Of a DNA stretch of 24,000 bases, positions 9,893-24,000 are shown one piece after another. The position numbers were made by a program, and so were the translations under genes. Below the pieces are notes generated by a model, which was not told the DNA's origin, searched no databases, and saw only the letters and a program-made list of their open reading frames with translations. How positions within the stretch are numbered: position 1 is the first letter of the stretch; every line of letters begins with the position of its first letter. Source of the stretch: Bradyrhizobium sp. CCGE-LA001 (GTDB taxonomy: Bacteria > Pseudomonadota > Alphaproteobacteria > Rhizobiales > Xanthobacteraceae); contig NZ_CP013949.1 in the NCBI RefSeq assembly GCF_000296215.2, positions 7,298,248 through 7,322,247 on the forward strand, given 5' to 3'.

Positions 9893-9931
9893 TCCCAAAA
9901 CAAAAATGGCCCGCATCAAGCGGGCCATTTT
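9893..9931 (-). terminator. Rho-independent terminator downstream of the tRNA-Met 3' end
   Basis: AAAATGGCCCGC (9903-9914) and GCGGGCCATTTT (9920-9931) form a perfect 12-bp stem with loop ATCAA. On the minus strand the stem is followed by TTTTTGTTTT. It lies 27 nt after the tRNA CCA end (9958). Confidence 0.75.
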
Positions 9932-9957
9932 CGTATCGGATCCGGTCAATCCGAATT

Positions 9958-10002
9958 TGGTTGCGGGGATAGGATTTGAACCTATGACCTTCAGGTTATG
10001 AG
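9958..10002 (-). pseudogene. 3' half only (anticodon loop to CCA) of an initiator-type tRNA-Met(CAT) gene; probable att junction of the integrated element
   Basis: The minus strand reads CTCATAA-CCTGA-AGGTC-ATAGG-TTCAAAT-CCTAT-CCCCGCA-A-CCA. This gives an anticodon loop with CAT, the 3' anticodon stem, a variable loop, a complete T-arm, the 3' acceptor strand, the discriminator and CCA. It closely parallels the remembered E. coli tRNA-fMet 3' half (GGGCTCATAACCCGAAGGTCGTCGGTTCAAATCCGGCCCCCGCAACCA). The 5' partner strands (TCAGG and [CT]GCGGGG) are absent from the 80 nt upstream, which is AT-rich unrelated sequence, so the gene is not intact. Confidence 0.75.
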
Positions 10003-10152
10003 TATGAATTTCACAGTTTTCTGGAGTTATCCCAAGACCTCTTGCTTTACCTAAGCCACTTAAAATACTAGTGAAATCTAGCATCGCGATTTCCCGAGAT
10101 ATCCTGCCATTCCCGTTACGGTGGCGACTCGGTGGCGATTCTGGAGGTCAAT

Positions 10153-11391
10153 GTGCCGGTACTGAAGCTGACGCGGAGAACGATCGACGCAATCGAACCC
10201 GTCGACAAGCAGACCATCTTTTACGACAGCGAATTGACCGGTTTTTGCCTCAAGGTCCTTCCCTCCGGCGTCCAGAGGTGGTGCGTCGAATACCGTAGCG
10301 GCGCCGGCGGGCGGAGCGTCGGCAAGACGCGGATGGTCCTTGGGTCCGCCTCGAGCATGACGCCCGACCAGGCGCGCGCTAGGGCCAAATCAACCCTCGC
10401 TGCTGTGGCTCTCGGACAGGATCCCGCCCGCAAGCGCTCGACCGAACGTGCCATGCCAACCTTTGCCGAGTTTGGCGAGCGCTATCTCAGGGAGGAGGCC
10501 GCGGCAAAACTAAAGCCGCGAACGGTCGTCAACTACCGTATCTACCTGCGTAAGCACGCCGCCCCCCTCCTGGGCACCCGCAAGCTCGATGCGCTCGATA
10601 GTGCCGCCATCTCGAAGATGCACCGGAAGATCGGCAAGGAGACGCCGATGACCGCGAATCGGGTCGTCGAGTTCATCGGATCCGTCTTCCGGTACGCTGC
10701 CGTCTGCGGCCTCGTTACCAAGGGGCACAATCCCGCGAGTCATGTCCAAGCATTCCGCGAGCAGCGCCGCGAACGGTTCCTGAGCTCACCGGAACTAGGC
10801 CGCCTGGGAGACGCCATTCGCGAAGCGGAAACGGTGGGCATTCCGTGGGCTGTGGACAAAGACCAGCCGAACGCGAAGCACATCCCGAAAAACGGTCGCA
10901 CGAAAATCGGGCCTCACGTAGCGGCTGCATTGCGCCTCTTGATCCTCACTGGCGCCCGACTGCGCGAAATCCTCGAGCTCAAGTGGGAGTATGTTGACCT
11001 CCAGCGCGGCCTGCTCCTGCTCCCTGACAGCAAGACGGGACAGAAGGCCATCATTCTCAATGCACCGGCTCTCGACATCCTTGGCAAGATTCCCAACGTC
11101 GATTGCTACGTGATCGCCAGCGATATCAAGGGCCAGCCTCGGCACGACCTGAATAAGCCTTGGAAGCTCGTGAGCACGCGATCAGGCCTCGAAGGCGTAA
11201 GAATCCATGACCTGAGACATACCCACGCCAGCTATGGCGCAGGCGCAGGCTTTGGGCTGCCCATTATCGGGAAGTTGCTTGGCCATTCGCAGCCCGCGAC
11301 CACCGCCCGGTATGCGCATCTGGACAATGATCCGTTGCGGCGAGCATCCAACCAAATCGCAAAGGCACTAGCGGAAGCCATGGGCGACTGA
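10153..11391 (+). CDS. int: Tyrosine recombinase / phage-type integrase with N-terminal DUF4102-type arm-binding domain
   Basis: The track ORF is 10132..11391. I prefer the in-frame GTG at 10153, 5 nt after GGAGG (10143-10147). The N-terminus (V)PVLKLTRRTIDAIEPVDKQTIFYDSELTGFCLKVLPSGVQRWCVEYR is the typical arm-binding domain of tRNA-targeting island integrases. The catalytic signature is LILTGARLREILELKW (Arg), HDLRHTHAS (His-x-x-Arg) and LLGHSQPATTARYAHL (His...Tyr nucleophile). Confidence 0.9.
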   Translation: MPVLKLTRRTIDAIEPVDKQTIFYDSELTGFCLKVLPSGVQRWCVEYRSGAGGRSVGKTRMVLGSASSMTPDQARARAKSTLAAVALGQDPARKRSTERAMPTFAEFGERYLREEAAAKLKPRTVVNYRIYLRKHAAPLLGTRKLDALDSAAISKMHRKIGKETPMTANRVVEFIGSVFRYAAVCGLVTKGHNPASHVQAFREQRRERFLSSPELGRLGDAIREAETVGIPWAVDKDQPNAKHIPKNGRTKIGPHVAAALRLLILTGARLREILELKWEYVDLQRGLLLLPDSKTGQKAIILNAPALDILGKIPNVDCYVIASDIKGQPRHDLNKPWKLVSTRSGLEGVRIHDLRHTHASYGAGAGFGLPIIGKLLGHSQPATTARYAHLDNDPLRRASNQIAKALAEAMGD

Positions 11392-11405
11392 CTCCGGGTG
11401 TCGAC

Positions 11406-12131
11406 GTGTCCTTAAACAACAAAGTGAGTGAGTTCACTGATATGGATGATTCCGACTTTCACCTCGTCCAGCCACCGTTTGCCCAACTAGATGAAGCGCT
11501 ATGGTGGATCGAGTTCAAGCAGATTGAAGAAGCCAAGCGAGACGGTTGGACATCAACACTTGAGAGCGCAAATCGGCTTGAAGCCGCTTTGCTCAATGGC
11601 ACACTTCAGGGATACGGCTCCCTGGATGCCGGGCCTGTGCAGCTCATCCAACAATGGACGTGGACCGAGTTTGAGTTTCTCCCCGCTGATCGCGATGGCC
11701 GGCGCATCGAAAAAAAGGTGGATTATATTCCCCAGTTCATAGTCCGCTCCCTCAAAGCCTACCGCGCGGAGGCGCTTAAAGACTTGAGCCAGCCGGCCTC
11801 CAAGCTCCTGCCAGGCCTGAATGAAAATGAACCTGGGTTTCACAGGGTAATGGACCAAATTGTCTTTCTCGAATGCGATCTGCGGCGAGTATTTCCTACG
11901 GAAATCGTTCAAACTAAAGAAGACCCGCCGCTCGATAAAAAGTACCCCAGGTTCCTAAAGGAAATTGAGGGCGAAAAGTACCTCCACAGTCCCGCGCCGG
12001 TCGGGTTCGACCACGTCTTTGGTCTACTCATTGAGTATTTGGAACGGACGGGGCAGCTCAACTCCGTCGACAGTTCGGTCCGGAAGGGGCTTCAACGCCA
12101 CTACAAGGAATTCAGCAAGCACGGACAATGA
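11406..12131 (+). CDS. Hypothetical protein (241 aa), island-borne, low G+C
   Basis: A long ORF in the most AT-rich part of the window, with a protein-like composition rich in E/K/L/F/W. It starts at GTG 11406, 15 nt after the integrase stop, or alternatively at ATG 11442. No motif was recognised. Confidence 0.55.
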   Translation: MSLNNKVSEFTDMDDSDFHLVQPPFAQLDEALWWIEFKQIEEAKRDGWTSTLESANRLEAALLNGTLQGYGSLDAGPVQLIQQWTWTEFEFLPADRDGRRIEKKVDYIPQFIVRSLKAYRAEALKDLSQPASKLLPGLNENEPGFHRVMDQIVFLECDLRRVFPTEIVQTKEDPPLDKKYPRFLKEIEGEKYLHSPAPVGFDHVFGLLIEYLERTGQLNSVDSSVRKGLQRHYKEFSKHGQ

Positions 12132-12234
12132 GACAAAGCAAGACATGTCCGCACTTGTCTGAACAGCTCTCTGCTTTCCCCTTGTAGGACTGGGTTGCCG
12201 GCAGCGCGTCGGCAATTCAAAGGGGAAAAACTTG

Positions 12235-12456
12235 ATGATCGAAAAAGCAACCGAGTCGTCCAAATGGCTGACTCGGAAAGAAGCCGCCGCCTACTTGCGA
12301 CTCGGTGAGAGCACGCTTGCAAAGCTGTTTGTCTCTGGCGACGGACCACCGGCCATCAAGATTGGGCGGTCCGTTCGCTATTCTGCGCTCGACCTGAACG
12401 CGTGGATGGGCTCTCGCCGGCGACGCTCGACGTCTGACAGCGGCTCCGCCGCGTAA
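12235..12456 (+). CDS. Small HTH DNA-binding protein, AlpA/excisionase-like (MerR-type HTH_17)
   Basis: The sequence WLTRKEAAAYLRLGESTLAKLFVSGDGPPAIKIGRSVRYSALDLNAWM matches the 'L+.+EaA.yLg.s..Tl.........P....g....Y....L..W' pattern of prophage/island excisionase-type regulators. The ATG at 12235 is preceded by AGGGGA (12221-12226); the track starts one codon earlier at TTG 12232. Confidence 0.7.
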   Translation: MIEKATESSKWLTRKEAAAYLRLGESTLAKLFVSGDGPPAIKIGRSVRYSALDLNAWMGSRRRRSTSDSGSAA

Positions 12457-12466
12457 GGTTGGGCCA

Positions 12467-13108
12467 ATGGACGTACGAGCCTTTAACCGCGAGAAGATGC
12501 AGTGGCTCAATGCCATCAGTCTTGAGTGCGAGGTCAACTCTACCGCCTTTCGGGTCGCTTATCTTATTGCCGATCATCAAAATTCAGTGGCTGGATTCGC
12601 TTGGCCATCCCTCGCTCGGCTGGCCGGGAAAGTCTGCCTATCGAATAAATCGATTCAGCGGGCGGTCGGGCAGCTGGAAAGACTGGGATGGCTTGAGGTG
12701 GAGCGAAGAAGGGAGCGTTCTAACCGATATCGCTTGAGATGGCCGCCTGGACGAGCCCCGGCGCCCAGGCCAACCGAAGGCAATGATGCAGACAAAACTG
12801 TCCTCGTGGAGAGACAAGAACGTCTCACCGGAGGGGACAAAACTGTCCGCCAATCCTACTTAACTAAATCCCTTAAAACCTTCTCAAGTCGGCTTGGCGG
12901 AGGAAGGCAAGGAACTCGGTTCGCCGATCAAGGCAAATTCGAAGCTGAGATCATTGGGCGATTTGGACCGGGCATGATCGACGTGCTTGAAAAGCTGAAC
13001 GAGATCGACCCCCGCGCCGTCGAACAGCTTTGCCGGCGGGCGAAAAATGGAACCTTGTCACGCGTCGACATTGCCGCTGCTGAGCTGACCGTGGCGCAAA
13101 ATCAATAG
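12467..13108 (+). CDS. Winged-helix DNA-binding protein (island replication/regulatory-type HTH), function unknown
   Basis: The sequence FRVAYLIADHQNSVAGFAWPSLARLAGKVCLSNKSIQRAVGQLERLGWLEVERR has the helix-turn-helix-wing layout seen in phage and plasmid initiator or regulator proteins. It follows the AlpA-like gene by 10 nt. Confidence 0.55.
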   Translation: MDVRAFNREKMQWLNAISLECEVNSTAFRVAYLIADHQNSVAGFAWPSLARLAGKVCLSNKSIQRAVGQLERLGWLEVERRRERSNRYRLRWPPGRAPAPRPTEGNDADKTVLVERQERLTGGDKTVRQSYLTKSLKTFSSRLGGGRQGTRFADQGKFEAEIIGRFGPGMIDVLEKLNEIDPRAVEQLCRRAKNGTLSRVDIAAAELTVAQNQ

Positions 13109-13117
13109 GACCGAAGA

Positions 13118-13492
13118 ATGACAGAATTTGACGAGATATTGTCGAGAGCGCTCGACGCGGCGCGATATTACTACCCGCGTTTGAGCGCAGAGGTCTATGT
13201 CTTTCCAAAGCCAGCCGATGCGGCGCAGCCGCCCGAACCCGCCGCATCGCAACTTCGCGAAAGGAGCTGCCGCATCGCTATCACATGGGTGGAGAGATTA
13301 TTGACGAATGGCGAGTTTGACAAAGGGGCCATCACGATCAGTCAGTTGCGGTCTCGGATTTTTCGTAGCGACCGCATCTTGATTCCGCGCGAGATCATTC
13401 TTGCGATCGCAGTGTACAAATGCGTTGAGATATTCGTCGGCGGACATGATGTCTGGCTCGGGAAGCTCTGGGATGGACCGGTACCATTTTAG
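13118..13492 (+). CDS. Hypothetical protein (124 aa)
   Basis: The ORF starts 9 nt after the previous stop, is co-oriented with it and has a reasonable composition. No motif was recognised. Confidence 0.45.
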   Translation: MTEFDEILSRALDAARYYYPRLSAEVYVFPKPADAAQPPEPAASQLRERSCRIAITWVERLLTNGEFDKGAITISQLRSRIFRSDRILIPREIILAIAVYKCVEIFVGGHDVWLGKLWDGPVPF

Positions 13493-13732
13493 TTGTCTCT
13501 CGTGCTGCGGGAGGGTTTTTAATGTATCCCACGGCCGCGATGTCGGCGCAGAGACGCGGGAGGCTTCCTTGTCGATGCCAATCGAGGCCGAGGGCGAATG
13601 GGGGGACTGCTTCTCATCTCTAAATTCTAGGTAAGGCCATCACAGAATGTCCCCGTGGGGAAGAAGCTGGTCATCCCGCTTGCGGGTCACATCGTCACCG
13701 AGAACAGTTGTTAGCCCGTCACCTCGGACAGG

Positions 13733-16105
13733 TCAGCGATTGCGTGGACGGAACGTAAAGCGGGCCGCTTCGGCGAAAGCCTGAGCGAAGCGCTCGCTGC
13801 CGGTCTTGCGGTCCACAAAGATTTCATCCTCTCTTTGAAGCGCATTCGCGGAAATATCCGGGCCGGTGTCAGTCGCGCGCGTCTCCGACGGGTCGCGGCC
13901 GGCGGCGGCGACGTATACGGCGCGCAATGCGGTGAGGACGGCGGCTCGCATGCCTTCGTCGTTGAGGCGTTCACGTAACCGGATCTGGGCATCATCTCGA
14001 CCTTCCGCGACGGGTTCTTTGTTAGGAAGGAGACAAGCCACGAGCGGATGGAGGCCATCGGTCGGCAGGTTCTGTCCAGCGATTTCGGCGACCAGCGCCG
14101 CGGTTTCCGTGGTGAGCCCGACCTCGCAGGCGAGAGCAAAAAGCAAATACGGATAGAGCGGTGTCTTGCCGACGCCGCCCGCCTCCAAGTCCGCAATGCC
14201 CGTGGGCCCACGCATCACGCGGATTAGGCGGTAGGTATTGACCAGGCGCTTCAGCCCGCGCGGTGACTTTCCTGCAAGCGGCGCCATGGCCGCCAGCGCT
14301 CGCCGCTCGAATTTTGACATCGTGGCTCGTCGTTGCGCCGCGGTTTGAAATAGCGTGGGATCGGGCGCCACGTCGATCGGCACCATGTTGTCCTGGCCCT
14401 GCTGCCCGCCTTTGTCACCGGCGGCCTGCCCCGGAGAGTCTGCGGGCTCTTCCTCCTGTTTATCGATGCCGCTGACGAATGTCTCGACCATTCCGGGATT
14501 GCTGATGGGCTGCATCCAGATCGGCAGCTGGAAAATCTTTTCAAGGTAATCGGCGACAGTTGCGCCAGCGGGCTGTACCGGTTGGTCGGCATCACCCGGT
14601 TGCCCGGGCACCGCAAGCTGGCCGCTGTAGACCTTGCCGACAGCGCGATGCAGCCAGCGGGCATCGACGGCAACGACTACGACGAAAAGGTCAAAGGCAA
14701 GGAGAAGGTGGATTGCCTGCAGGACCTGCACAACGTGCTGCTCGGAGCAGCGGTCAAGATCGTCGATATAGACGATGATGCGTCGCACCTCGGGAACGTG
14801 GGTGAGATCGGCTACTTTGTCTGCTGCGGGCTTGGAGTTGCCTTCGGCGGGTTTGACCTCCGCCGGCGCTGCCGCACGCTTCTCGTGCATGATCTGCTCG
14901 AGGGTTACGAAGCACCGCCTGACCGTCGCGAGAAGCCCAAGCTTCTTGCGCACCTCGGCAAGCTCCGGCGAGTAGGTAATGAAGTAGCGCAGCAGACCTT
15001 CGCGAGATCGCCCCTCGGCCGCGAGGCTGTAAGAGGCCGCGAACTCCGTTGCCTTCTTCTGCTCGGCGATCATGGCGTCGAGCTTCTCGCGTTCCTTCTT
15101 GACCAACTCAGAGGCTTCGCGCCGCTCATTGTTTAGCTCGGCAGCTCGCTTCTCCTTGCGGGCGAGGAATTCGGCGGCTAGCGAGAGGATCGGCGTCGCG
15201 GTGCCGATCGCGATCGCAGCCGTGCCGATCAGCGTTCCGAGCACAGCAACGGAAGGAAAGGCACTAACGATGTAGGACCAAATCTCCGGGACACGTCCCC
15301 AACCGAGATACCAGACGGCCCCGCCGACTCCGATGGTAAGAACGGCGAGGGCTGCAGTGAGCCCATAGATGATGCCCCGGCTGAGACTGCGGCGCAGCAG
15401 CACGAAGAGCAGCCCGGCGCGGCTCGGCAGATCGAACAACCCCGACAGGAGCGACGCAAGCTTTTCCGGATCGCGCTCGCCGGTCGGTACACCGCACGCC
15501 TGCAACAACTCGTCGAGACGCTTCTTGTGGGCTTCGGCCTTTTCGACTTCGCGCCTCTTGTTCGGGTCCTTTTTGTCTTTATCGCTGAGTTCCTTCGGGG
15601 TTGCTTTTGTGATGAGTTCTTTGGCCATCTCGCCTGCCACGGTCGCTGCCACTGGCTCGTGCTCGAGGCCTACGAGCTTTGTCTCGGCCGCCTGTATAGC
15701 CTCGCGCTGAAGTTCGATAGCGCCTTCTACCAGCGGCGAAGCTTCGGCGTCCCTGCGCAGTCGCTTGGCGATCTCTGTGATCAGGCCGGTCCTAAGCTTA
15801 CCGTCCGGTGCGCGGCCGTCGATGGCATCGGCAAGCTGATCGAACAGCTCTGCTGTAAGGGAAGCCCAGAGGTTTTCGGCATCGGCATGACTCCAAGCAT
15901 CGAAGTTAATCTGCACCACCTTCGGCGCCGCCGGCACACTCGGTTCCGGCGACGTGCGCGCGGCAATTTGATCCTTTAGCAGGCGGATAAGCGTACTCTT
16001 TCCCGAACCCCAAGGACCGAACACTCCAACCGCGACCGGCGGCTTGAGGTCATCGAGCAGTAACAGATCAGCAAGCGCCGCCGCATCGCTCCCGGTGTTG
16101 AGCAA
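13733..16105 (-). CDS. KAP-family P-loop NTPase with transmembrane helices inserted inside the NTPase domain
   Basis: The Walker A motif is VGVFGPWGSGKSTL. The Walker B motif is RRIIVYIDDLDRCSEQHVVQVLQAIHLLL, about 410 residues later; DDLDRC is the KAP family signature. In between lie charged coiled-coil-like stretches and hydrophobic segments (GLLFVLLRRSLSRGIIYGLTAALAVLTIGVGGAVWYLGW and IWSYIVSAFPSVAVLGTLIGTAAIAIGTATPILSLAAEFL). The called start is TTG at 16105, with GAGG 5 nt upstream. Protein-like KAP N-terminal sequence continues upstream in the same frame without a start codon (see findings). Confidence 0.85.
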   Translation of the reverse strand: MLNTGSDAAALADLLLLDDLKPPVAVGVFGPWGSGKSTLIRLLKDQIAARTSPEPSVPAAPKVVQINFDAWSHADAENLWASLTAELFDQLADAIDGRAPDGKLRTGLITEIAKRLRRDAEASPLVEGAIELQREAIQAAETKLVGLEHEPVAATVAGEMAKELITKATPKELSDKDKKDPNKRREVEKAEAHKKRLDELLQACGVPTGERDPEKLASLLSGLFDLPSRAGLLFVLLRRSLSRGIIYGLTAALAVLTIGVGGAVWYLGWGRVPEIWSYIVSAFPSVAVLGTLIGTAAIAIGTATPILSLAAEFLARKEKRAAELNNERREASELVKKEREKLDAMIAEQKKATEFAASYSLAAEGRSREGLLRYFITYSPELAEVRKKLGLLATVRRCFVTLEQIMHEKRAAAPAEVKPAEGNSKPAADKVADLTHVPEVRRIIVYIDDLDRCSEQHVVQVLQAIHLLLAFDLFVVVVAVDARWLHRAVGKVYSGQLAVPGQPGDADQPVQPAGATVADYLEKIFQLPIWMQPISNPGMVETFVSGIDKQEEEPADSPGQAAGDKGGQQGQDNMVPIDVAPDPTLFQTAAQRRATMSKFERRALAAMAPLAGKSPRGLKRLVNTYRLIRVMRGPTGIADLEAGGVGKTPLYPYLLFALACEVGLTTETAALVAEIAGQNLPTDGLHPLVACLLPNKEPVAEGRDDAQIRLRERLNDEGMRAAVLTALRAVYVAAAGRDPSETRATDTGPDISANALQREDEIFVDRKTGSERFAQAFAEAARFTFRPRNR

Positions 16106-17112
16106 GTCGGCCTCGGTCCGATCATTCGCAAACGCATGGGTTTCGCCAGCGGCGCGGGGGGCAGGCTTACCTGCCGCATCTCGTCTAAGATCGGGCCCCA
16201 GGACTCGAGCTTGTCGCCCAGGTTTACGTAATTCTTAATTTCGTCCTGAACAATCCGCGTCAATGTATCGCGCCAGCTGATAAAGTTCAGTCCAGCGGCA
16301 TCGCTGGCTACACGCCCTATCTCTTCAAGGACGAGTCCGGCGAGGAAGTGCCGCACGCCGCCTTCAAGGTACGAGACATTTGTCTTTTCGCGCAGCAAGG
16401 ACATACGAAGAAGAATGGCTACGAGTTCCGGACCAACGATCACGTTGCTCGCACTCGCATCAATTGTCGTTTCGGACGGGAAATCGAACTGCCCAAGCTG
16501 AGTGGGCGTTGCACTGGAATATTCGCGCACTATCCTCGGCAGGAATACGCTCGGCCTACTCGCCATACCTTGCCCAATCTGCCGGTGCAGCAGCGCATCG
16601 AAAACCTGACGTGGCCGCAAAATCCGATCGTGGTCGAGCCGGGTCGCAGCAATCCGAAGCAGCCGTCCAAGGTTTGCCGAAACATAGGGCACGGCGCTCT
16701 CAGGCCAGGTGAACGCGAGAATGTCCTGTAGAGCAGCGCCACGGTCTCGTGCCGGCGCCAGCGGATCCGCCAGAGGAGCGATACCGTTCTGACCGATCGT
16801 GCCGGTCCCCTGCAGCGTATCTGGTTCTTCACCAGCAGCCTGCTGCTCTCTACTGCCCGCTTGTTCGTCGAAATCGGATTCGCTCTCGTTCTTCGCCTTT
16901 CCTGGGCGTCGATCGACCCTCCGACGCAATTCTGAAAGTTGACTTTCCAATTCGATCTGCCGCGACGTCTTGGACCATCCAGGCTCCTCGGACGGCGACG
17001 CGCTTGATGAGACGGATGTCACATACGGCTTATTTCGGGCAGCCTCGAGCGCTGCGATCTCCCGTTCAAGGTTCGCTATCTGGTCATGCAGGTTACTTGC
17101 GAGTTCTTGCAT
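15976..17112 (-). CDS. Hypothetical protein: N-terminal coiled coil, acidic low-complexity linker, ~230-aa helical domain; partner of, or fused to, the KAP NTPase
   Basis: The track ORF is 15976..17178. I prefer the ATG at 17112 (MQELASNLHDQIANLEREIAALEAARNK). Codon usage is consistent down to about 16160. The last ~60 codons (PMRLRMIGPRPTCSTPGAMRRRLL...) overlap the KAP gene out of frame and look non-protein-like, so the true 3' end is uncertain. Confidence 0.55.
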   Translation of the reverse strand: MQELASNLHDQIANLEREIAALEAARNKPYVTSVSSSASPSEEPGWSKTSRQIELESQLSELRRRVDRRPGKAKNESESDFDEQAGSREQQAAGEEPDTLQGTGTIGQNGIAPLADPLAPARDRGAALQDILAFTWPESAVPYVSANLGRLLRIAATRLDHDRILRPRQVFDALLHRQIGQGMASRPSVFLPRIVREYSSATPTQLGQFDFPSETTIDASASNVIVGPELVAILLRMSLLREKTNVSYLEGGVRHFLAGLVLEEIGRVASDAAGLNFISWRDTLTRIVQDEIKNYVNLGDKLESWGPILDEMRQVSLPPAPLAKPMRLRMIGPRPTCSTPGAMRRRLLICYCSMTSSRRSRLECSVLGVRERVRLSAC

Positions 17113-17558
17113 TGCATCGCCCTCGTGCCGGCATTCAAGGTCGAGGCAGGTGAAACCGCGCCCGCGGCGACGCCTCAACGGTCGGATGCATGTAATCTAA
17201 TTCACAATCGTGACCTGTGCTACACACCGGCGTCGCGAAGAGCCGGTGGATTGCGCAACGGCGCGCAGGCGAAGGGCTGCGGCGGCACAACGCCCGCCGA
17301 CCCGCGATCATTGAGGCGTTCAGAAACTCAGGCGGAAAGCCTGAATGTGCGGAAAATGAGTCCGCAATTGGTGCGTGATTGGCCTCGCAAAGAATCTGCT
17401 TTCTGGCGATTAGCAGACTGCGGATTGAGTTCAGGACCTGCGCTTGTTAGCCCGAACCGAAGCGGTTTGAGGGAGGATGCGGGTCCCTCCGAGGACGCCA
17501 CCCCCTACGGCACAAACGCGCCCCAGAAAATCACCAGCCGCAGAGGGCGGAAGCTGGG

Positions 17559-17588
17559 TTGACAAGGTTGACACGTTGACAGTCGACA
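17559..17588 (+). repeat. Cluster of TTGACA hexamers (3 exact plus 1 TCGACA) at 9-, 8- and 7-nt spacing
   Basis: TTGACAaggTTGACAcgTTGACAgTCGACA was read directly. It lies in the ~500-bp gene-free spacer between the two minus-strand cargo units. The hexamers are on the + strand, antisense to both flanking genes. Confidence 0.6.
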
Positions 17589-17674
17589 ACAAGCGATCAT
17601 TAAGACAATTCATTTCCATTGCGCGACATCGATCAGGATGGTCCGACGGATGAGAAAGTGCGCATTTGGCGGTA

Positions 17675-18445
17675 TCAGCGCTGCGCCCAGGACAGCAGCC
17701 AGCCCGACGACAGCGTCGTGAGCCAGAGGATGACGACTAGCGTCAGCCAGGCGAATGGTACGACGAAAGCGAGAAGTGGTTCAGGCGCCTTTGCGACGGC
17801 TACCTTGCCGCTATTGCGACCCGAGGTGTAACTTGTCTGTGCCGGCTTCGTTTTCAGCCATCGGGCCAGCGCGCTGACGCCAAGGTTGATGAGCAGTGCC
17901 GCAACCAGGGCATGCGCAGCGCTGGCGGCGATCTCGTACTGGTCTCCCTTCAAGTCAAGGCTCCGCAATAGCAGACTGATTGAATCGATCGCATGGTTCT
18001 CGCGCTGGCCGGACTGGAGCTTCTCAGCAAGCAGAAACGACAGCGACAACAGGATCACCGTGACGGAAAACGCTGACACGATCGATGTCATCATCACTCG
18101 GTGCGCCAAGGATTGCAGCGGCGATTTGTCATACCCGCAGCTCACGAACATTCGAGTCAGAACAAACAGTCCGAAGACGGCCAAGAGAGCGGCGACGGCG
18201 GCAAGAAAGAAATATTCTGGATATTCTCCGAGTAGCTTGCCGTATCCGCCGGGGTGCACGCGCATCAGATGCAGCAGGAACGGCAGCGACAGCCAGATCA
18301 GCGCGGCTAGTCCGCGTTCGATGCGGCGATTACCGAGCATCGCGCGACCAGGAAAGCGCGTCAGGGTTAGCATGCTGGACGGCTCGGCCTCCGCCTCGAT
18401 CGCCTCGCTGGCAAGCACGGCTGCGGACATACTGCTGGTCGGCAT
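17675..18445 (-). CDS. Polytopic inner-membrane protein (256 aa, about 5 TM segments), unknown function
   Basis: ATG at 18445, with GGGAG 7 nt upstream overlapping the stop of the preceding gene. Hydrophobic segments are LAALIWLSLPFLLHLM, YFFLAAVAALLAVFGLFVLTRMFV, VMMTSIVSAFSVTVILLSLSFLLA, AHALVAALLINLGVSALA and LLAFVVPFAWLTLVVILWLTTL. Confidence 0.6.
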   Translation of the reverse strand: MPTSSMSAAVLASEAIEAEAEPSSMLTLTRFPGRAMLGNRRIERGLAALIWLSLPFLLHLMRVHPGGYGKLLGEYPEYFFLAAVAALLAVFGLFVLTRMFVSCGYDKSPLQSLAHRVMMTSIVSAFSVTVILLSLSFLLAEKLQSGQRENHAIDSISLLLRSLDLKGDQYEIAASAAHALVAALLINLGVSALARWLKTKPAQTSYTSGRNSGKVAVAKAPEPLLAFVVPFAWLTLVVILWLTTLSSGWLLSWAQR

Positions 18446-18458
18446 CGATAGCTCCCGT

Positions 18459-19388
18459 TTAGCGGCCCGAGGAAGTCTTCCACGTGACGGTCCGTACTAA
18501 GGGCGTGCGATCGCCATTCTTGCTCGCGCGCCACAGTCTGATCATGGTCCGATAGGGTTGCCAAGTCCTGAACGACCAGGAATCCTGGGTCGGAACACTG
18601 AAGCCGAAGCAAGCCGGTGCCGCGCTGTCACCTGCCGAAACGATAGCGAATTCAGTGGTATAGGAGCCGCGAGTCTCCGCGTCCTTCTTCTGACGCCTAC
18701 GCTCGGCGTCAGCGCCGAACACGGTCCGCAGCACCTCCATGTCGTCGGGCAACCTCTCGAAGCCGTAAGTCTTCCAGCGCTGTCCGCGGGTAACAAGATC
18801 GCTGTTACTTCCGACGCAGTCGGTGCCGCCGTCCTTCAGATCGAGATGCAGACGATCGCCTATGTTCGTTCCCAGCGGGTTGCGCGAAATGTCATCGGCG
18901 TGATTCTGGGCATATTCGCGCATGCTGACCCAGCGGCTGTTGAGCCAACGACCACCACCAAACTGCAGTAACGCCTTGCCGCCCGAGCACTCCGTTGCAA
19001 TGCCCGGCCGCCAGAGTTTGACCTTGTCTGCCTCGATCCGGCTCCCGATATCCACCCCGGGCTCCTCAATCGTTTCGGTGCGCACACTCCAGACTTCTTC
19101 CCGGCCCGCCAGGACCCTGCCGCCGATCATGAACAAGCGCGCTTCGGGGTGATATGTCAGGGCTACGCCGTTGACGCGATAATAGCGGCGGCCGTCCCCG
19201 AGGCTGCCAGCTTCGCCCGGCGCGGCAGCAATGTGGGCCGGATAAAGCAGGAACAGGCCGCGCGCAGCGCCGAGTCCGGTACAGACGGCCTGGTCGTCGT
19301 TCCAATTGGGGACCTGTGCAGCCGCCGGAGCAAGGGTCCCGAGCCACGCCACGAACATCGGTATCGGCAATAGATGAACAAAATTCAT
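18459..19388 (-). CDS. Secreted/periplasmic protein (~309 aa) of unknown function
   Basis: The track ORF starts at GTG 19418. The ATG at 19388 gives a canonical signal peptide, MNFVHLLPIPMFVAWLGTLAPAAA-QV. The rest is soluble-looking with several Cys residues. The gene is 13 nt from the next one. Confidence 0.6.
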   Translation of the reverse strand: MNFVHLLPIPMFVAWLGTLAPAAAQVPNWNDDQAVCTGLGAARGLFLLYPAHIAAAPGEAGSLGDGRRYYRVNGVALTYHPEARLFMIGGRVLAGREEVWSVRTETIEEPGVDIGSRIEADKVKLWRPGIATECSGGKALLQFGGGRWLNSRWVSMREYAQNHADDISRNPLGTNIGDRLHLDLKDGGTDCVGSNSDLVTRGQRWKTYGFERLPDDMEVLRTVFGADAERRRQKKDAETRGSYTTEFAIVSAGDSAAPACFGFSVPTQDSWSFRTWQPYRTMIRLWRASKNGDRTPLVRTVTWKTSSGR

Positions 19389-19484
19389 GTCGAACGGCCC
19401 CCGATCTCGATCAACCACAAAGTTCGCTAACGCACATTAGCGCCTGACAATAATAGAAGGATGCCCCTCAGCATCTACCAACGT

Positions 19485-22265
19485 TCACTGCTTTCCCGCC
19501 CTCTTCTGCTTCGCCACGCGCTGTTTCACCGCCTTCTCGACCGCAGCGATGAAACTGCCGACGCCGCTGTCAGTGGCAGTCGGAGCGATCGTGTCGATGA
19601 CGTGCTCGCCGAGCGCGCGGTAGGCCTCGAACTGGGTCTCCCCGAAAAACTGGTCTGTCGTTGGCTCATGCGGAAACTTCTCGTGCATGAGCGCGTAGCT
19701 GCGCACGGACAGGGGGGCGCTATCGTCGCGGCACGGCTTCATGTAGAGCAGTTTGCCGGTGCTGCGCTCAGGCAGGTGATAGGTAATGGTGGCGACGGCG
19801 CAAGGCGAGGAGGCATCGGTCAGCCTGGCGGCGATGTCGAACGACTCGAACTGCACGGTGACGCCGAGGTCGATCTCCGCCCGCCGCAGCGCGTTGCCGA
19901 GGTCCTCGAAAGTCATCTTGCAGTCCTCACCTCCGTCGCTGACGACGATGAGCCGGCACCGCCGGCGTAACATTTCGTAGATGCCCAGATTGTCGAAGTG
20001 GCCGCCGTCCGACAAGTAGACATAGTGTCGATCCGCGGTGGTGATCCCGAGCGCTTCGGAGATTAGAGGGATTGCGGAGAACAGCGGCCCCGAACTCTTG
20101 TGGCTCTTGTGTCCTTTCGGCCCCGGATTTCCGTACCACGCACCGAGACGAACGTTGAACAGCGTCATCAGGATGCTGTAGGCGGGCGACGAACTGTAGC
20201 CCATATTCGGGCTGACGGCGGCGCCGGAAACCGTCATCGCACTCCCGAGCGTGATGCCGCCACCATAGTCCCCAGTATTGCGGAAATAGCCGGCCGGCAG
20301 GCCCCCCGATTGCCCCATCGATGGCAGATCGCCGGTGCCGATCGCGAGCGGCGTTGCCGTGAACGATACCGCCTTGCGCTCCTGCCAGGCGAGTTGCGAG
20401 CTGCCGACGACGTTCAGCGCCATGTTTACTACGAGCAAAGGCGGGCGCTGGCCCGGTTTGTTTGCCGGCGCCGGCTCCCTCACCCTTGTCCCCGGCCAGA
20501 TCGTTGCAAGGCCGAGATCGTCGTTGCGGTCGAAGTCGGTCAGTTCGTTGGCCTCGCGCGGATGATGCGAGGCGCCGAGGAATGTTCGGATCAGGCGATT
20601 GCGATAGACTCCGTGCATCGAGAAGCGATTGATGTCGACAAAATACGACGTTGCAAGGGCGATCGTCATAGCTGCGGCGGCTACCGCCCAGGTCAGTCCA
20701 GTGTCGGTGTGGGCAGGAAGCAGTGCCGTGCCGTGGATATGCCAGTCGAGCACGACCGACGTCAGCACGATCAGACTGACCGTGAACACCATCGTCGCCA
20801 CAGCCATCACCAGATCGCGCGGCAGCTCCATCCACGACCTGACGTTTTCCTTGATCGTCGCTGTTGTCGATTTTGCCCAGCCGAGCAGCGCCGTTGTTGC
20901 GCCGGCGAGGCTGCCCACGCCGGCGAAGCCCGCCAACTGCAGCCTCGTTGGATGGCTCATCAAATCGAAGACGATTAGCGACCCGAGCAGCACTAGACCA
21001 AACAGAAGGAGCCAGGCTGTTGCCGCCAGTAGATGATGCCCGGCCGCGCGCGCCAACCACTCGCGCTCGCCGTCGCTCCAGTCTGTCATGTGCGTCAGCG
21101 CCACATAGATGACTTCGCCGAGGAACAGGGTGAGCATGACAACCGGCGGTCCTGCAATGATGAAAGTATGCCGCGGCGTCAGCGGTGCCGGCAGGTCGTG
21201 CAACCGGTCACCGCCATAAATCGCAAGACCAACCAATGCCGCCCCCACCGCCCAGCTCACCACGATAGCGCCAGCGACAGTTGCAAGTTTCCGCGGCGCG
21301 ATCAGAGACGCGTCGCTGGGCGGGCGTGCGAAACTCGAAAAATAGAGCGCGACAAGGCAGGCGAGTAGGCCGGTAACGGCGCTGACGCTGGCAAAAAAGA
21401 AGGTGATGCTGATCGAGAGGGGAGAATTTTGATATCCGGCGATGTTGTCAGGCGGAAAGACGAAGCCGACGTCCGTGATCGTGATGTCCGGCGGAAGGAC
21501 GAAGCCGATGGTAGCGACCGTGATCAGCGTCGCGCCGATCAGCATCGGAATGATCTCGAATACATAGAAATTGAACAGGCCGGAATCAGCCACGTCTCCG
21601 TGGGGCCCCGGCCGCTGCCCGATAGAATCCACGAACGACATACCCATGAAAGCGACCGCGATAATCGCGAGCATGGCACGCCATTCCGGTGGAGCGTTCC
21701 AAGCGCCGACCGCAATCAGCTTTACCGCTGCGACGACCAGCACGACGACTGGCAGCAGCACTAGCCAGTTAAGCAGCAGATTGCGAACATAGATCACGCC
21801 CATCGTTAACCGGTCAGCGGAGAACAGCCCGGTCCGCGGCGTCAGGTAGTTGCTGTAGTTGCGCAGGTGCCGTAGTGGTGAATTCGTGCGCATTGGTTCA
21901 TTGCCGCTGAGCTGCCCCTGCGCATCGTCGAATCCATGCCGCTGGATCCAAGCGACGAGGAAACTGCCAACATAGCCGCCGCCGGACACAGTCGACAGAT
22001 AGTCGAATTTTTCCAAAATTTGCCGCTTCGCCAGTCCCTGCACAATGCCGAGCGCGAACGCAGCGCTGCGGATTCCGCCACCCGAAAGGCACAGCGCCGC
22101 AAGCGGCGTCGCAAGATCCTCGACCAGCCTGTGATAGCGATCGATATTGGCTGCCGTATTGGCCTGAGAATTCTGCTCTGGACCGATGACACCCGAGCGG
22201 CGATAGCGGACATACTGCAGCTCCTCGAGCAACACTTCGCTGGTGTCCTTGATATCGTCGATCAT
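19485..22265 (-). CDS. Patatin-like (cPLA2/PNPLA-type) phospholipase with a large polytopic membrane insertion between the catalytic Ser and Asp
   Basis: The oxyanion motif is LCLSGGGIRSAAFALG (G62-G64). The nucleophile elbow is YLSTVSGGGYVG (Ser94), 30 residues later. The catalytic Asp motif is YLSDGGHFDNLGIYE (Asp753; codon 20009..20007). Between about residues 150 and 560 lie roughly ten hydrophobic 20-25-residue segments, for example LLLNWLVLLPVVVLVVAAVKLIAVG, FEIIPMLIGATLITVATIGFVL, ITFFFASVSAVTGLLACLVALYF, LLAATAWLLLFGLVLLGSLIVF and LVMAVATMVFTVSLIVLTSVVL. Confidence 0.85.
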   Translation of the reverse strand: MIDDIKDTSEVLLEELQYVRYRRSGVIGPEQNSQANTAANIDRYHRLVEDLATPLAALCLSGGGIRSAAFALGIVQGLAKRQILEKFDYLSTVSGGGYVGSFLVAWIQRHGFDDAQGQLSGNEPMRTNSPLRHLRNYSNYLTPRTGLFSADRLTMGVIYVRNLLLNWLVLLPVVVLVVAAVKLIAVGAWNAPPEWRAMLAIIAVAFMGMSFVDSIGQRPGPHGDVADSGLFNFYVFEIIPMLIGATLITVATIGFVLPPDITITDVGFVFPPDNIAGYQNSPLSISITFFFASVSAVTGLLACLVALYFSSFARPPSDASLIAPRKLATVAGAIVVSWAVGAALVGLAIYGGDRLHDLPAPLTPRHTFIIAGPPVVMLTLFLGEVIYVALTHMTDWSDGEREWLARAAGHHLLAATAWLLLFGLVLLGSLIVFDLMSHPTRLQLAGFAGVGSLAGATTALLGWAKSTTATIKENVRSWMELPRDLVMAVATMVFTVSLIVLTSVVLDWHIHGTALLPAHTDTGLTWAVAAAAMTIALATSYFVDINRFSMHGVYRNRLIRTFLGASHHPREANELTDFDRNDDLGLATIWPGTRVREPAPANKPGQRPPLLVVNMALNVVGSSQLAWQERKAVSFTATPLAIGTGDLPSMGQSGGLPAGYFRNTGDYGGGITLGSAMTVSGAAVSPNMGYSSSPAYSILMTLFNVRLGAWYGNPGPKGHKSHKSSGPLFSAIPLISEALGITTADRHYVYLSDGGHFDNLGIYEMLRRRCRLIVVSDGGEDCKMTFEDLGNALRRAEIDLGVTVQFESFDIAARLTDASSPCAVATITYHLPERSTGKLLYMKPCRDDSAPLSVRSYALMHEKFPHEPTTDQFFGETQFEAYRALGEHVIDTIAPTATDSGVGSFIAAVEKAVKQRVAKQKRAGKQ

Positions 22266-22285
22266 GGTGTCCGTTCCCGCGATGC

Positions 22286-24000
22286 TCAGTTCGGTGGAGC
22301 CGGAGCAACCGGCGACGCCGGCAGGCGCTGCAGTGTGACCTGCGCGGTGCCGCGATTGTTAGAGTAGTAGCAGCCGTAGGGCCCCAGGAATGGCACGATC
22401 TGGATCGCATCGTTCACGTAGAGGAAAAGCTCGCCCGATTCCGGCGCGATGAAATCGGCAACGAACTCGCGCGCGAGGTTCTGCGCGTCCCACTCCTGCT
22501 TCGCGTCGTCCATTTTTGACGCATCGATCTTGTCAGTCGGGATCAGCCGGCAGTCCTTGTTGCCGTTGTTCGCGACCGTTTCGGGGCTAGGTGCGTAGGC
22601 AAACCTGGACGGCAGCTCCTGCATCAGCGCCGGCGCGGCCTTGCGCGGCAGTTCGTCGGCCGGTCGCTTGTTATTGGCAACCAACGGCCATTCGGAGGTG
22701 CCCCACTTGCCGACACGGGCGATCGGTTGGAACCAGTCCGCGTGATACCAGCGCCGGCTAGCGAGGCCCAGGCCGTGGGAGGTGAAAAGCGACGTCGTGA
22801 AGCCGTTCGTGCCCGACATGGTCGTGCGGTCGAACCATGGCTCCACGACTTTCATCGATAGGCGGTACTGGCGGCCTTTCTCGATCCAAAGCCCGCTACC
22901 CCAGCACATCGCGCTCGTTTCGAACAGTTTGCCGGCTTGCTTCGGCGTTTCGTCGACTACGAACTCGCCCGCGGTCACGCACATCGGGGTGCTGCGTCCG
23001 GCGTACCAGTCGAACAATGAGCGGTTGCCAGCGACGAATACGGAGCCGAAAAGAGCGGTGAGCAGCACCCCCGGAAAGACCCAGGTCGATACGAGCATCG
23101 CCAGCCCGTTCGCGAGATGGCAGTTGCGCATCTCGCGCGCGAAGCTGCGTCTGCCGGCATGCTCCCGCGCCGCCTCGCAGGTTTCGCGCTCTTTGCCTGC
23201 GACAATGCGCTCCGGGTGATACCAAGCAAGTCGCGCGCGCTCGCGGATCCTGTCACGCAGCGACGTCGACCATTGATAGGCAAAAAAGATGAAGGTGGCG
23301 AGCAAGAGCGTGAGCAACGGATAAGTGCGTGCTGTCTCGAGCCACGCGGCGGCTGCCGAAGGCAGGAAAGCCTGCAACAGATCGAAGGGCACCGCGAGAA
23401 CGCGAACGGACCGATCGTTACCCTCCTCGAGCTGTTCAAAGACCCCCCCAAGTCCCGCCAGAACGGCGAGGCCGCGCAGTACGGCCACAAGTTTCGGCGC
23501 GAGAACCGGCCAGGCCAGGGCCACCGCGGCGAGCGCGAGCAGCCAGAAATAGGAAACGCGCCGCCACCACACCGTATCGAGAGTCCGTTCGACGATCGTC
23601 TCGCTGGGCGGCGGCAACTGGTCGATCGCGGCCTCGCCGGCCGCAGCATTGTCGCGCCGCGCTTGCGTCGCATTGGCCGCCGGCTGCCAGCGGACCCGCG
23701 CGCGCTTCTCCGGTGGCAAGATCAATTCCGCCGTTGCGCCGGTCGGTCCCGGGAGCCAGACCAGCGACTTCGCCGGCAGCGTCACCGGCGCATAGTTGTC
23801 GCAGCCCTTGAGCATGCGCTGCACCACGCTGTGATGCAGCACCGGCGGCCCACCATCTTTCAAGTCGCTTGCGATGCCGCGCGGACTGTAGCGATAGAAC
23901 ACAGCGGCGCCCGCGCGCGAGTCGTGCACCGGACCGATCGCCGACTGATAGGCGCGGAAATAATCGATGCGCCCGTCCTGGAAGCGCAGCTGGCCCTCGA
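22286..24000 (-). CDS. 5'-truncated gene: membrane protein (4-5 TM) with C-terminal soluble domain ending in a LecA/PA-IL-like motif
   Basis: The track starts it at GTG 23929, but the same frame stays open to the window edge (...EGQLRFQDGRIDYFRAYQSAIGPVHDSRAG...), so the N-terminus lies outside. TM segments are YFWLLALAAVALAWPVLAPKLV, YPLLTLLLATFIFFAYQW and LAMLVSTWVFPGVLLTALFGSVFVAG. The C-terminal end is GELFLYVNDAIQIVPFLGPYGCYYSNNRGTAQVTL. The stop is 20 nt before the patatin ATG. Confidence 0.65.
   Translation of the reverse strand, partial: EGQLRFQDGRIDYFRAYQSAIGPVHDSRAGAAVFYRYSPRGIASDLKDGGPPVLHHSVVQRMLKGCDNYAPVTLPAKSLVWLPGPTGATAELILPPEKRARVRWQPAANATQARRDNAAAGEAAIDQLPPPSETIVERTLDTVWWRRVSYFWLLALAAVALAWPVLAPKLVAVLRGLAVLAGLGGVFEQLEEGNDRSVRVLAVPFDLLQAFLPSAAAAWLETARTYPLLTLLLATFIFFAYQWSTSLRDRIRERARLAWYHPERIVAGKERETCEAAREHAGRRSFAREMRNCHLANGLAMLVSTWVFPGVLLTALFGSVFVAGNRSLFDWYAGRSTPMCVTAGEFVVDETPKQAGKLFETSAMCWGSGLWIEKGRQYRLSMKVVEPWFDRTTMSGTNGFTTSLFTSHGLGLASRRWYHADWFQPIARVGKWGTSEWPLVANNKRPADELPRKAAPALMQELPSRFAYAPSPETVANNGNKDCRLIPTDKIDASKMDDAKQEWDAQNLAREFVADFIAPESGELFLYVNDAIQIVPFLGPYGCYYSNNRGTAQVTLQRLPASPVAPAPPN

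Follow-up and report, generated by a model that had tools for sequence, protein, structure and literature searches.

Among the closest described counterparts of the gene reported here are the KAP family P-loop NTPases (Pfam PF07693), including the defence proteins Tmn, QatA, PifA and EF_KAP, in which a long transmembrane insert lies between the Walker A and Walker B motifs and is followed by a helical C-terminal region. The insertion of transmembrane helices within the NTPase domain has been described for Tmn (bioRxiv 10.1101/2022.08.21.504612), and in a tested KAP defence protein deletion of the fused non-NTPase region abolished function (PMC13552941). At the level of the DNA, two further kinds of system invite comparison. 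In phase-variable defence genes, a G/C run within the coding region occurs in on and off lengths. In frameshifted pseudogenes, as in homopolymer consensus errors of long-read assemblies, a one-base change in a G/C run splits a conserved ORF, intact in its orthologues, into two overlapping ORFs, and gene callers invent truncated starts for the pieces.

We describe here a gene of Bradyrhizobium sp. CCGE-LA001 (genome of 7,833,499 bp, GC 63.6%) that lies on the minus strand at 13733..17112 of the window, the whole stretch of 24,000 nucleotides that was analysed. Judged from their homologues, the two minus-strand ORFs found at this locus are halves of one gene, with an ancestral single ORF of about 1126 codons encoding an N-terminal helical domain and a membrane-inserted KAP P-loop NTPase. 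The N-terminal part (16159..17112, minus strand) consists of 318 codons in the upstream frame and comprises a coiled-coil, a disordered acidic linker and a helical globular domain. The KAP NTPase part (13733..16153, minus strand) consists of 806 codons and a stop and lies in the -1 frame with respect to the N-terminal part. The frame switches at a run of six C on the minus strand (16156..16161; genome positions 7,314,403-7,314,408), which is one nucleotide short and which reads as G6 on the plus strand, exactly where the original prediction had placed it.

The layout of the reading frames agrees closely with that prediction. The upstream ORF runs on the minus strand from ATG 17112 (or TTG 17178) to a stop at 15976 and overlaps the TTG-started KAP ORF (16105..13733, minus strand) by 130 nt. 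Upstream, the KAP frame is bounded by a stop codon (16235..16237, minus strand), with which its translation opens; 43 open codons without ATG, GTG or TTG then precede the TTG at 16103..16105 (minus strand). Initiation there would give a 790-aa product that lacks the N-terminal domain and carries the Walker A motif GPWGSGKS at residue 30. This TTG had been proposed as the only possible start of the KAP frame; it is indeed the first, but in-frame GTGs follow at 16024 and 15937, and these are the starts chosen by public annotations, which cut into or remove the P-loop. Past the C6 tract, the upstream frame continues into an out-of-frame tail (15976..16155, minus strand; 59 codons and a stop), a by-product of the shift that had been recognized as Arg/Cys/Ser-rich nonsense; the tail contains 12 Arg, 5 Cys and 7 Ser. 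From the tract to the stop at 15976, the KAP frame has the GC content by codon position of a coding sequence (0.71/0.49/0.64), whereas the upstream frame (0.50/0.65/0.70) does not.

The Pfam score for PF07693 (101.6 bits against a cut-off of 20, E 6.4e-29), the Walker A motif and a Walker B motif (IIVYIDDLDR, at about residue 445 from TTG 16105), and transmembrane helices inserted between the two (Kyte-Doolittle windows of at least 1.6 at residues 244-268 and 275-315) place the protein in the KAP family. Like the KAP defence proteins, it has a helical C-terminal region after the insert and joins the NTPase to another domain, and it is encoded by a stand-alone gene on an island, in a family whose gene neighbourhoods differ from one homologue to another. 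It departs from them in that the matches are weak and partial: PADLOC returned no full-length match to the known anti-phage systems QatABCD, PifA or PDC-S20, only 48-59 bits over the NTPase motifs (for QatA, 59 bits over two stretches), and no match to a defence partner gene among the neighbours. It also carries a 318-aa N-terminal domain without a family: neither Pfam nor PADLOC nor a PDB sequence profile produced a match. Many columns of this N-terminal part are invariant across 10 homologues, and its AlphaFold model (pLDDT 74.7) is all-alpha. The best PDB matches of the modelled globular part (residues ~112-318) are the N-domains of Hsp101, Hsp104 and Hsp100, which would suggest a double Clp-repeat as in Clp/Hsp104 N-domains; at E values of 0.07-0.16 and TM scores of 0.44-0.47 on the target, with no sequence-level support, this resemblance is a weak lead only.

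The proposal of a single gene whose two frames join at the C6 tract is borne out by homologues that are single ORFs across the junction. Most of the 18 closest homologues are single proteins of 1051-1152 aa, as are most of P0002-P0015, which span both halves, and a 97%-identical single protein is present in B. guangdongense SM32. When aligned to P0002 (tblastn/BLASTP), the two halves cover residues 10-344 and 346-1152; the KAP part is 97% identical over the latter range, and the alignment of the upstream ORF ends at ...VSLP, its nonsense tail having no counterpart in homologues. The N-terminal part is 96% identical to SM32. An alignment of 12 sequences is continuous through the junction, where intact homologues read ...EMRQVSLPPR(T/A)AGETHAF..., and the 43 start-less codons upstream of TTG 16105 encode a conserved linker. 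Rather than consistently showing two genes with the same overlap, the intact homologous loci are fused in 10 cases out of 10, which establishes the single-gene ancestry. As an independent protein, the N-terminal domain was not found among 5.8 billion proteins, the sole 238-aa match to it being another frame-broken copy of the same family. The family is distributed sporadically in Bradyrhizobium and soil metagenomes; a metagenome scan for relatives yielded four loci, one of them full-length, and a search of a plasmid collection gave no match.

The same comparison locates the lesion to the base. The spacing before GETHAF is identical in the 10 intact loci, and only the window departs from it, lacking 1 nt within the C run. 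The junction reads GCCTG-C6-GCGCC in the window, GCCTG-C7-GCACC in the closest metagenomic relative (L002) and GCCTG-CCCTCCC-AAGCC in SM32 (L005), where a T interrupts the run; relative to these two, a 1-nt gap falls at window position 16158. Over 14 kb of synteny with SM32, this gap is the sole uncompensated indel inside an ORF, and no further stop or indel was seen within the 3.4-kb gene. The ratio of nonsynonymous to synonymous changes is 14/23 on the window branch (dN/dS ~0.2) and 13/15 on the intact SM32 branch (dN/dS ~0.29). We rejected an old, decaying pseudogene, there being neither relaxed selection nor secondary lesions. With both halves otherwise intact and dN/dS at ~0.2, the lesion is either very recent or not real. 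Of the three options in the original prediction, these results support the first, a frameshift mutation or sequencing error, whose two forms are weighed below.

The explanation that we favour, with confidence that is evenly balanced, is that one ancestral gene genuinely contracted from C7 to C6 in the strain and is now a very young, most likely inactive pseudogene. The ancestor encoded a single protein of ~1126 aa in which an N-terminal coiled-coil and helical domain were joined to the KAP NTPase through the linker ...EMRQVSLPPRAAGETHAF..., and the contraction may have arisen as in slipped-strand mispairing during replication. The ribosome would then quit the conserved frame after Leu-Pro-Pro and run through 59 nonsense codons to a stop, while the NTPase part, deprived of the N-terminal domain, would be made only where ribosomes start internally, and inefficiently, at TTG 16105 or at a GTG farther on. 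Since the non-NTPase region is needed in the tested KAP defence protein (PMC13552941), uncoupling of the domains is, by analogy, plausibly inactivating here. We infer that the base is truly missing from the DNA of the cell, and not merely from the PacBio consensus, and that function has been lost.

The gene is cargo of a tRNA-Met-inserted genomic island. The edge of the island is marked by the 45-nt 3' half of a tRNA-Met (9958-10002), followed on the plus strand by a tyrosine integrase gene (10132-11391; domains PF00589, PF13356 and PF22022). The 45-mer recurs inside an intact tRNA-Met ~47.6 kb away (genome positions 7,355,753-7,355,829), and GC content falls to 0.56-0.60 across 9-19 kb of the window. 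The island adjoins the symbiosis region. The cargo was found in one of 400 other genomes of the genus, and dispensable island cargo of this sort is where real inactivations persist.

It is also quite possible, if short of probable, that the strain really carries C7 and an intact gene of 1126 codons, one C having been dropped by a consensus built with PacBio reads only and HGAP3/Quiver. The error that typically remains in such assemblies is a base lost from a G/C homopolymer, and the present lesion, one base deleted from a run of C, is of this kind. Apart from it, the two halves are flawless and evolve under purifying selection (dN/dS ~0.2), and the closest relative with a tract at this place has C7. 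The CCGE-LA001 genome was assembled from PacBio RSII data at 243x with HGAP3 and Quiver, short-read polishing not being mentioned (PMC4796124). A Quiver consensus at 243x is, however, usually better than QV50, and consensus errors should hit core genes evenly, whereas the sole verified case lies in accessory cargo.

A genome-wide scan also speaks against this explanation. Across more than 5,000 homopolymer runs, frame-switch signatures were not enriched over random positions, and none of the 69 G/C runs of at least seven carried one. In its strict form (GC3 of at least 0.75), the scan missed the known C6 site itself because the GC3 of the gene is low (0.62-0.71); loosened scans detected it, against a background of 1.4-2.4% at random positions that a handful of events could escape. 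A Pfam check of the 10 other G/C6 candidates found no true frameshift, nine being spurious frames without a domain and one the normal lptF-lptG gene pair. Together with a CheckM-type completeness of 100%, these results argue that the assembly is not generally error-ridden.

A tract that is not conserved, the lack of a slippery heptamer or RNA structure, and an N-terminal domain that never occurs separately together make evolved phase variation, two genes and programmed frameshifting unlikely. The original prediction had offered slippage-controlled expression, phase-variable or programmed, as its second option, which is disfavoured in both forms. Under phase variation, C6/C7 slippage would act as a low-frequency reversible on/off switch of a stand-alone, membrane-embedded KAP NTPase with a putative role in defence or conflict in Bradyrhizobium populations. 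Other bacteria are known to switch defence genes through homopolymers, and the present gene shares with those genes a G/C run in the coding region of a defence-like gene. Both alleles occur in the family (C6 in the window, C7 in L002), the gene resembles defence-associated KAP NTPases through its weak PADLOC matches to QatA, PifA and PDC-S20, and it sits on an integrase-bearing island. The tract is nevertheless short (6-7), established contingency tracts usually being 8 or longer. An uninterrupted C tract is conserved in only one of the 10 intact relatives, that of SM32 being interrupted by T and the others using mixed codons for the linker. Moreover, the two alleles do not stem from a single population: the lineages carrying C6 and C7 share only 84% protein identity. 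We regard such a switch as improbable.

More doubtful still is the third option, that of two genuinely overlapping genes, in which a helical protein of 378 aa would be translated separately from a KAP NTPase initiated at TTG 16105 or at one of the later GTGs. Public annotations do list a 378-aa protein and one of 763 or 734 aa, and a GAGG sits 5 nt before TTG 16105, as had been noted. However, the GAGG and TTG bases also lie inside intact homologues, where they are plain T-E-A-D-L codons, and they thus give no evidence for a dedicated start. The two-gene architecture occurs in no homologous locus, the first ORF ends in 59 residues of out-of-frame nonsense, and the start-less codons before the TTG belong to the conserved linker. 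The annotated GTGs lie either 3 residues ahead of Walker A or beyond it, and their products lose part or all of the P-loop. The homologous sequences have already largely refuted this reading.

Least credible is recoding, in which programmed -1 ribosomal frameshifting, or slippage of transcription at the C run, would restore the full-length protein from a C6 template. With tRNA-Pro in the P site on the second CCC, perfect re-pairing one base back could occur, and the -1 reading (L-P-P-R-A-A-G-E-T-H) is the ancestral sequence. An X XXY YYZ heptamer is absent, however: the zero frame is CTG CCC CCC GCG, with a G preceding the run. The 106 nt downstream show no folding advantage over shuffled sequences (MFE -34.1, shuffle mean -35.75, z = +0.49), 129 of 200 shuffles folding equally well. 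Runs known to cause appreciable polymerase slippage are longer than C6, and all 10 relatives are in frame, which implies no conserved recoding site. A productive +1 shift on CCC-C was also rejected, the +1 frame meeting a TGA after 11 codons.

The split reflects either a gene broken in an ordinary way or a consensus error of long-read assembly; it involves no new mechanism and does not differ in kind from the frameshifted pseudogenes and assembly errors already known. The main consequence concerns annotation. Public records list three artefactual proteins, one of 378 aa with the nonsense tail, one of 763 aa that begins within the P-loop strand and one of 734 aa without Walker A, in place of the single frameshifted gene that belongs there; the fragments are now in protein databases, clustered with the intact 1152-aa protein. 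For the biology of the strain, the locus represents another accessory, defence-like island gene, either freshly inactivated or mis-assembled. The intact family, in which a helical N-terminal domain is joined to a KAP NTPase with inserted transmembrane helices, is a candidate for anti-phage or other conflict functions.

All elements of the original prediction's description were confirmed. On the minus strand, the upstream ORF runs from ATG 17112 (alternative TTG 17178) to a stop at 15976, and the KAP frame, which ends at 13733, is open from a stop at 16237-16235. Its first ATG, GTG or TTG is TTG 16105, 29 residues ahead of the Walker A motif GPWGSGKS, and there are therefore 43 start-less codons upstream; the TTG-started ORF overlaps the upstream ORF by 130 nt. 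The run of six C (16156-16161, G6 on the plus strand) lies where the upstream frame loses sense. The 59 residues that this frame encodes past it abound in R, C and S, and its GC by codon position is non-coding in pattern (0.50/0.65/0.70), whereas the identical bases read in the KAP frame give a coding-like 0.71/0.49/0.64.

Searching with the 833-codon open KAP frame, we found that the closest matches are mostly single proteins of 1051-1152 aa. They include P0002 from Bradyrhizobium guangdongense SM32 (1152 aa, 97% identical to the query), P0003 (1126 aa, 84%) and a further series at 62-74% identity. The upstream ORF aligns with P0002 residues 10-344, its last part being ...EMRQVSLP, and the KAP frame aligns with residues 346-1152, beginning with AAGETHAF; a 12-sequence alignment is unbroken and conserved across the junction. 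The window reads GCCTG-C6-GCGCC at this point, against GCCTG-C7-GCACC in L002, the locus encoding P0003, and GCCTG-CCCTCCC-AAGCC in SM32 (L005). The 48-nt spacing ahead of the GETHAF codons is identical in 10/10 intact loci, and the window alone falls one base short of it, the missing base mapping within the C run. This gap is the sole frame-breaking indel inside ORFs over ~14 kb of synteny with SM32, where all other ORF-internal indels are compensated to multiples of three; one further single gap, at 17164, is located ahead of the gene's conserved start, ATG 17112. The fused homologues, the continuous alignment and the deficit in the C run together show that both ORFs are one gene (~1126 codons), divided where a C7 tract is shortened by one base. 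The leading reading of the original prediction, a homopolymer frameshift or error separating two joinable frames, was thus right, and the alignment of homologous loci that it proposed finds the N-terminal part fused to KAP in intact relatives. Nothing about this homopolymer frameshift is out of the ordinary, and the gene that it affects is accessory.

In public records of the CCGE-LA001 genome the gene appears as three minus-strand fragments, which share a 90% cluster with the intact protein of SM32: one of 378 aa (17112..15976, nonsense tail included), one of 763 aa from GTG 16024, three residues ahead of Walker A, and one of 734 aa that starts at GTG 15937 and lacks Walker A. The two NTPase models are truncated because gene callers avoided the overlap.

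A genuine recent deletion has about an even chance of being the cause. When L002 serves as outgroup, 14 nonsynonymous and 23 synonymous changes fall on the branch of the window (dN/dS ~0.2), and 13 and 15 on that of intact SM32 (dN/dS ~0.29); no second lesion was found in the 3.4 kb of gene. Because of this ratio of ~0.2 and the lack of a second lesion, the break is either very young or not real. A consensus error, in which a base present in the strain was dropped in assembly, is a serious contender at somewhat below even likelihood. Residual errors of a PacBio-only HGAP3/Quiver consensus are typically bases dropped from G/C homopolymers. The CCGE-LA001 assembly (CP013949; 7,833,499 bp, one contig, GC 63.6%) indeed rests on PacBio RSII reads alone, assembled by HGAP3 and Quiver at a coverage of 243x (PMC4796124). 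Four results speak against a consensus that is error-prone in general. Frame-switch signatures at >5,000 homopolymer runs were no commoner than at random positions, although this genome-wide scan is noisy and a few errors are compatible with its result. True frameshifts numbered 0/10 among other G/C6 candidates, the signature occurred in 0/69 G/C runs of 7 or more, and marker-gene completeness is 100%. The sole verified case also affects dispensable cargo, the kind of DNA in which real inactivations survive. A first, GC3-based frameshift scan had missed the C6 site because third-position GC in the KAP gene is low.

The other readings of the original prediction are disfavoured. Programmed -1 frameshifting at C6 is unlikely: the site lacks a heptamer of the form X XXY YYZ, shuffled sequences fold as well as the 106 nt that follow it (z = +0.49), and no relative requires a shift. 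An evolved phase switch is also unlikely, the tract being short and present in only 1/10 relatives (T-interrupted in SM32, mixed codons in the rest). Two genuine overlapping genes, with KAP starting at the TTG behind a GAGG, are contradicted by the absence of such an architecture from every homologous locus, by an N-domain-only search that gave one 238-aa protein, itself another, independently frame-broken copy whose frame changes between residues 31-213 and 212-669, and by GAGG-N5-TTG merely encoding T-E-A-D-L within the intact genes. This gene family's second frame break, independent of the one here, was seen in a soil-metagenome relative (L016:219-2131; L017 DNA identical), inside the N-terminal domain in a variable linker at ~nt 740-765; it places those residues (P0002 31-213 and 212-669) in different frames.

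The KAP gene is island cargo here. A 45-nt tRNA-Met 3' half (9958-10002) adjoins a tyrosine integrase gene (10132-11391), and GC content falls to 0.56-0.60 at the island. The 45 nt are repeated exactly in an intact tRNA-Met 47.6 kb downstream (genome 7,355,753-7,355,829), and the two copies delimit an island. At genome 6,715,346 and 6,793,093, 0.5-0.6 Mb upstream, there are two more partial tRNA-Met copies, which comprise the first 30 nt. The gene is rare and sporadic (1/400 other genomes of the genus), and its relatives occur as stand-alone genes whose surroundings are unrelated to one another. DNA identity to SM32 is 95-98% in the KAP gene (13733-17112) but only 75-92% in the syntenic island flanks (9895-13700, 17200-24000), which suggests recent gene exchange between lineages, or far stronger constraint than on the neighbours. 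Third-position GC of the gene (0.62-0.71) is well under that usual for a 63.6% GC genome, consistent with horizontal acquisition. Adjoining it on the minus strand (17675-23929) are four ORFs, one a 926-aa patatin-like phospholipase, none with a PADLOC match.

The C-terminal 806 codons encode a typical KAP NTPase (PF07693, 101.6 bits), in which hydrophobic helices lie within the ~415 residues from Walker A to Walker B. The same architecture, with inserted hydrophobic helices separating the two motifs, has been described for the defence protein Tmn (10.1101/2022.08.21.504612). PADLOC gave only partial matches, to QatA, PifA and PDC-S20. The N-terminal part (318 codons, 16159-17112, minus strand) belongs to no family found in Pfam. 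Its AlphaFold model (pLDDT 74.7) has a coiled-coil, a disordered acidic linker and an all-alpha globule, and its best PDB matches, all weak (E 0.07-0.16), are Hsp104/Hsp101 N-domains. Judging from this weak likeness of the model to Clp/Hsp104 N-terminal substrate-binding domains, the domain may be a protein-recognition module. Since EF_KAP lost defence once its fused non-NTPase region was removed (PMC13552941), uncoupling of the domains by the split is, by analogy, probably inactivating. The frameshift is useful for annotation and of low general interest; the split gene points to an uncharacterised family of KAP NTPases.
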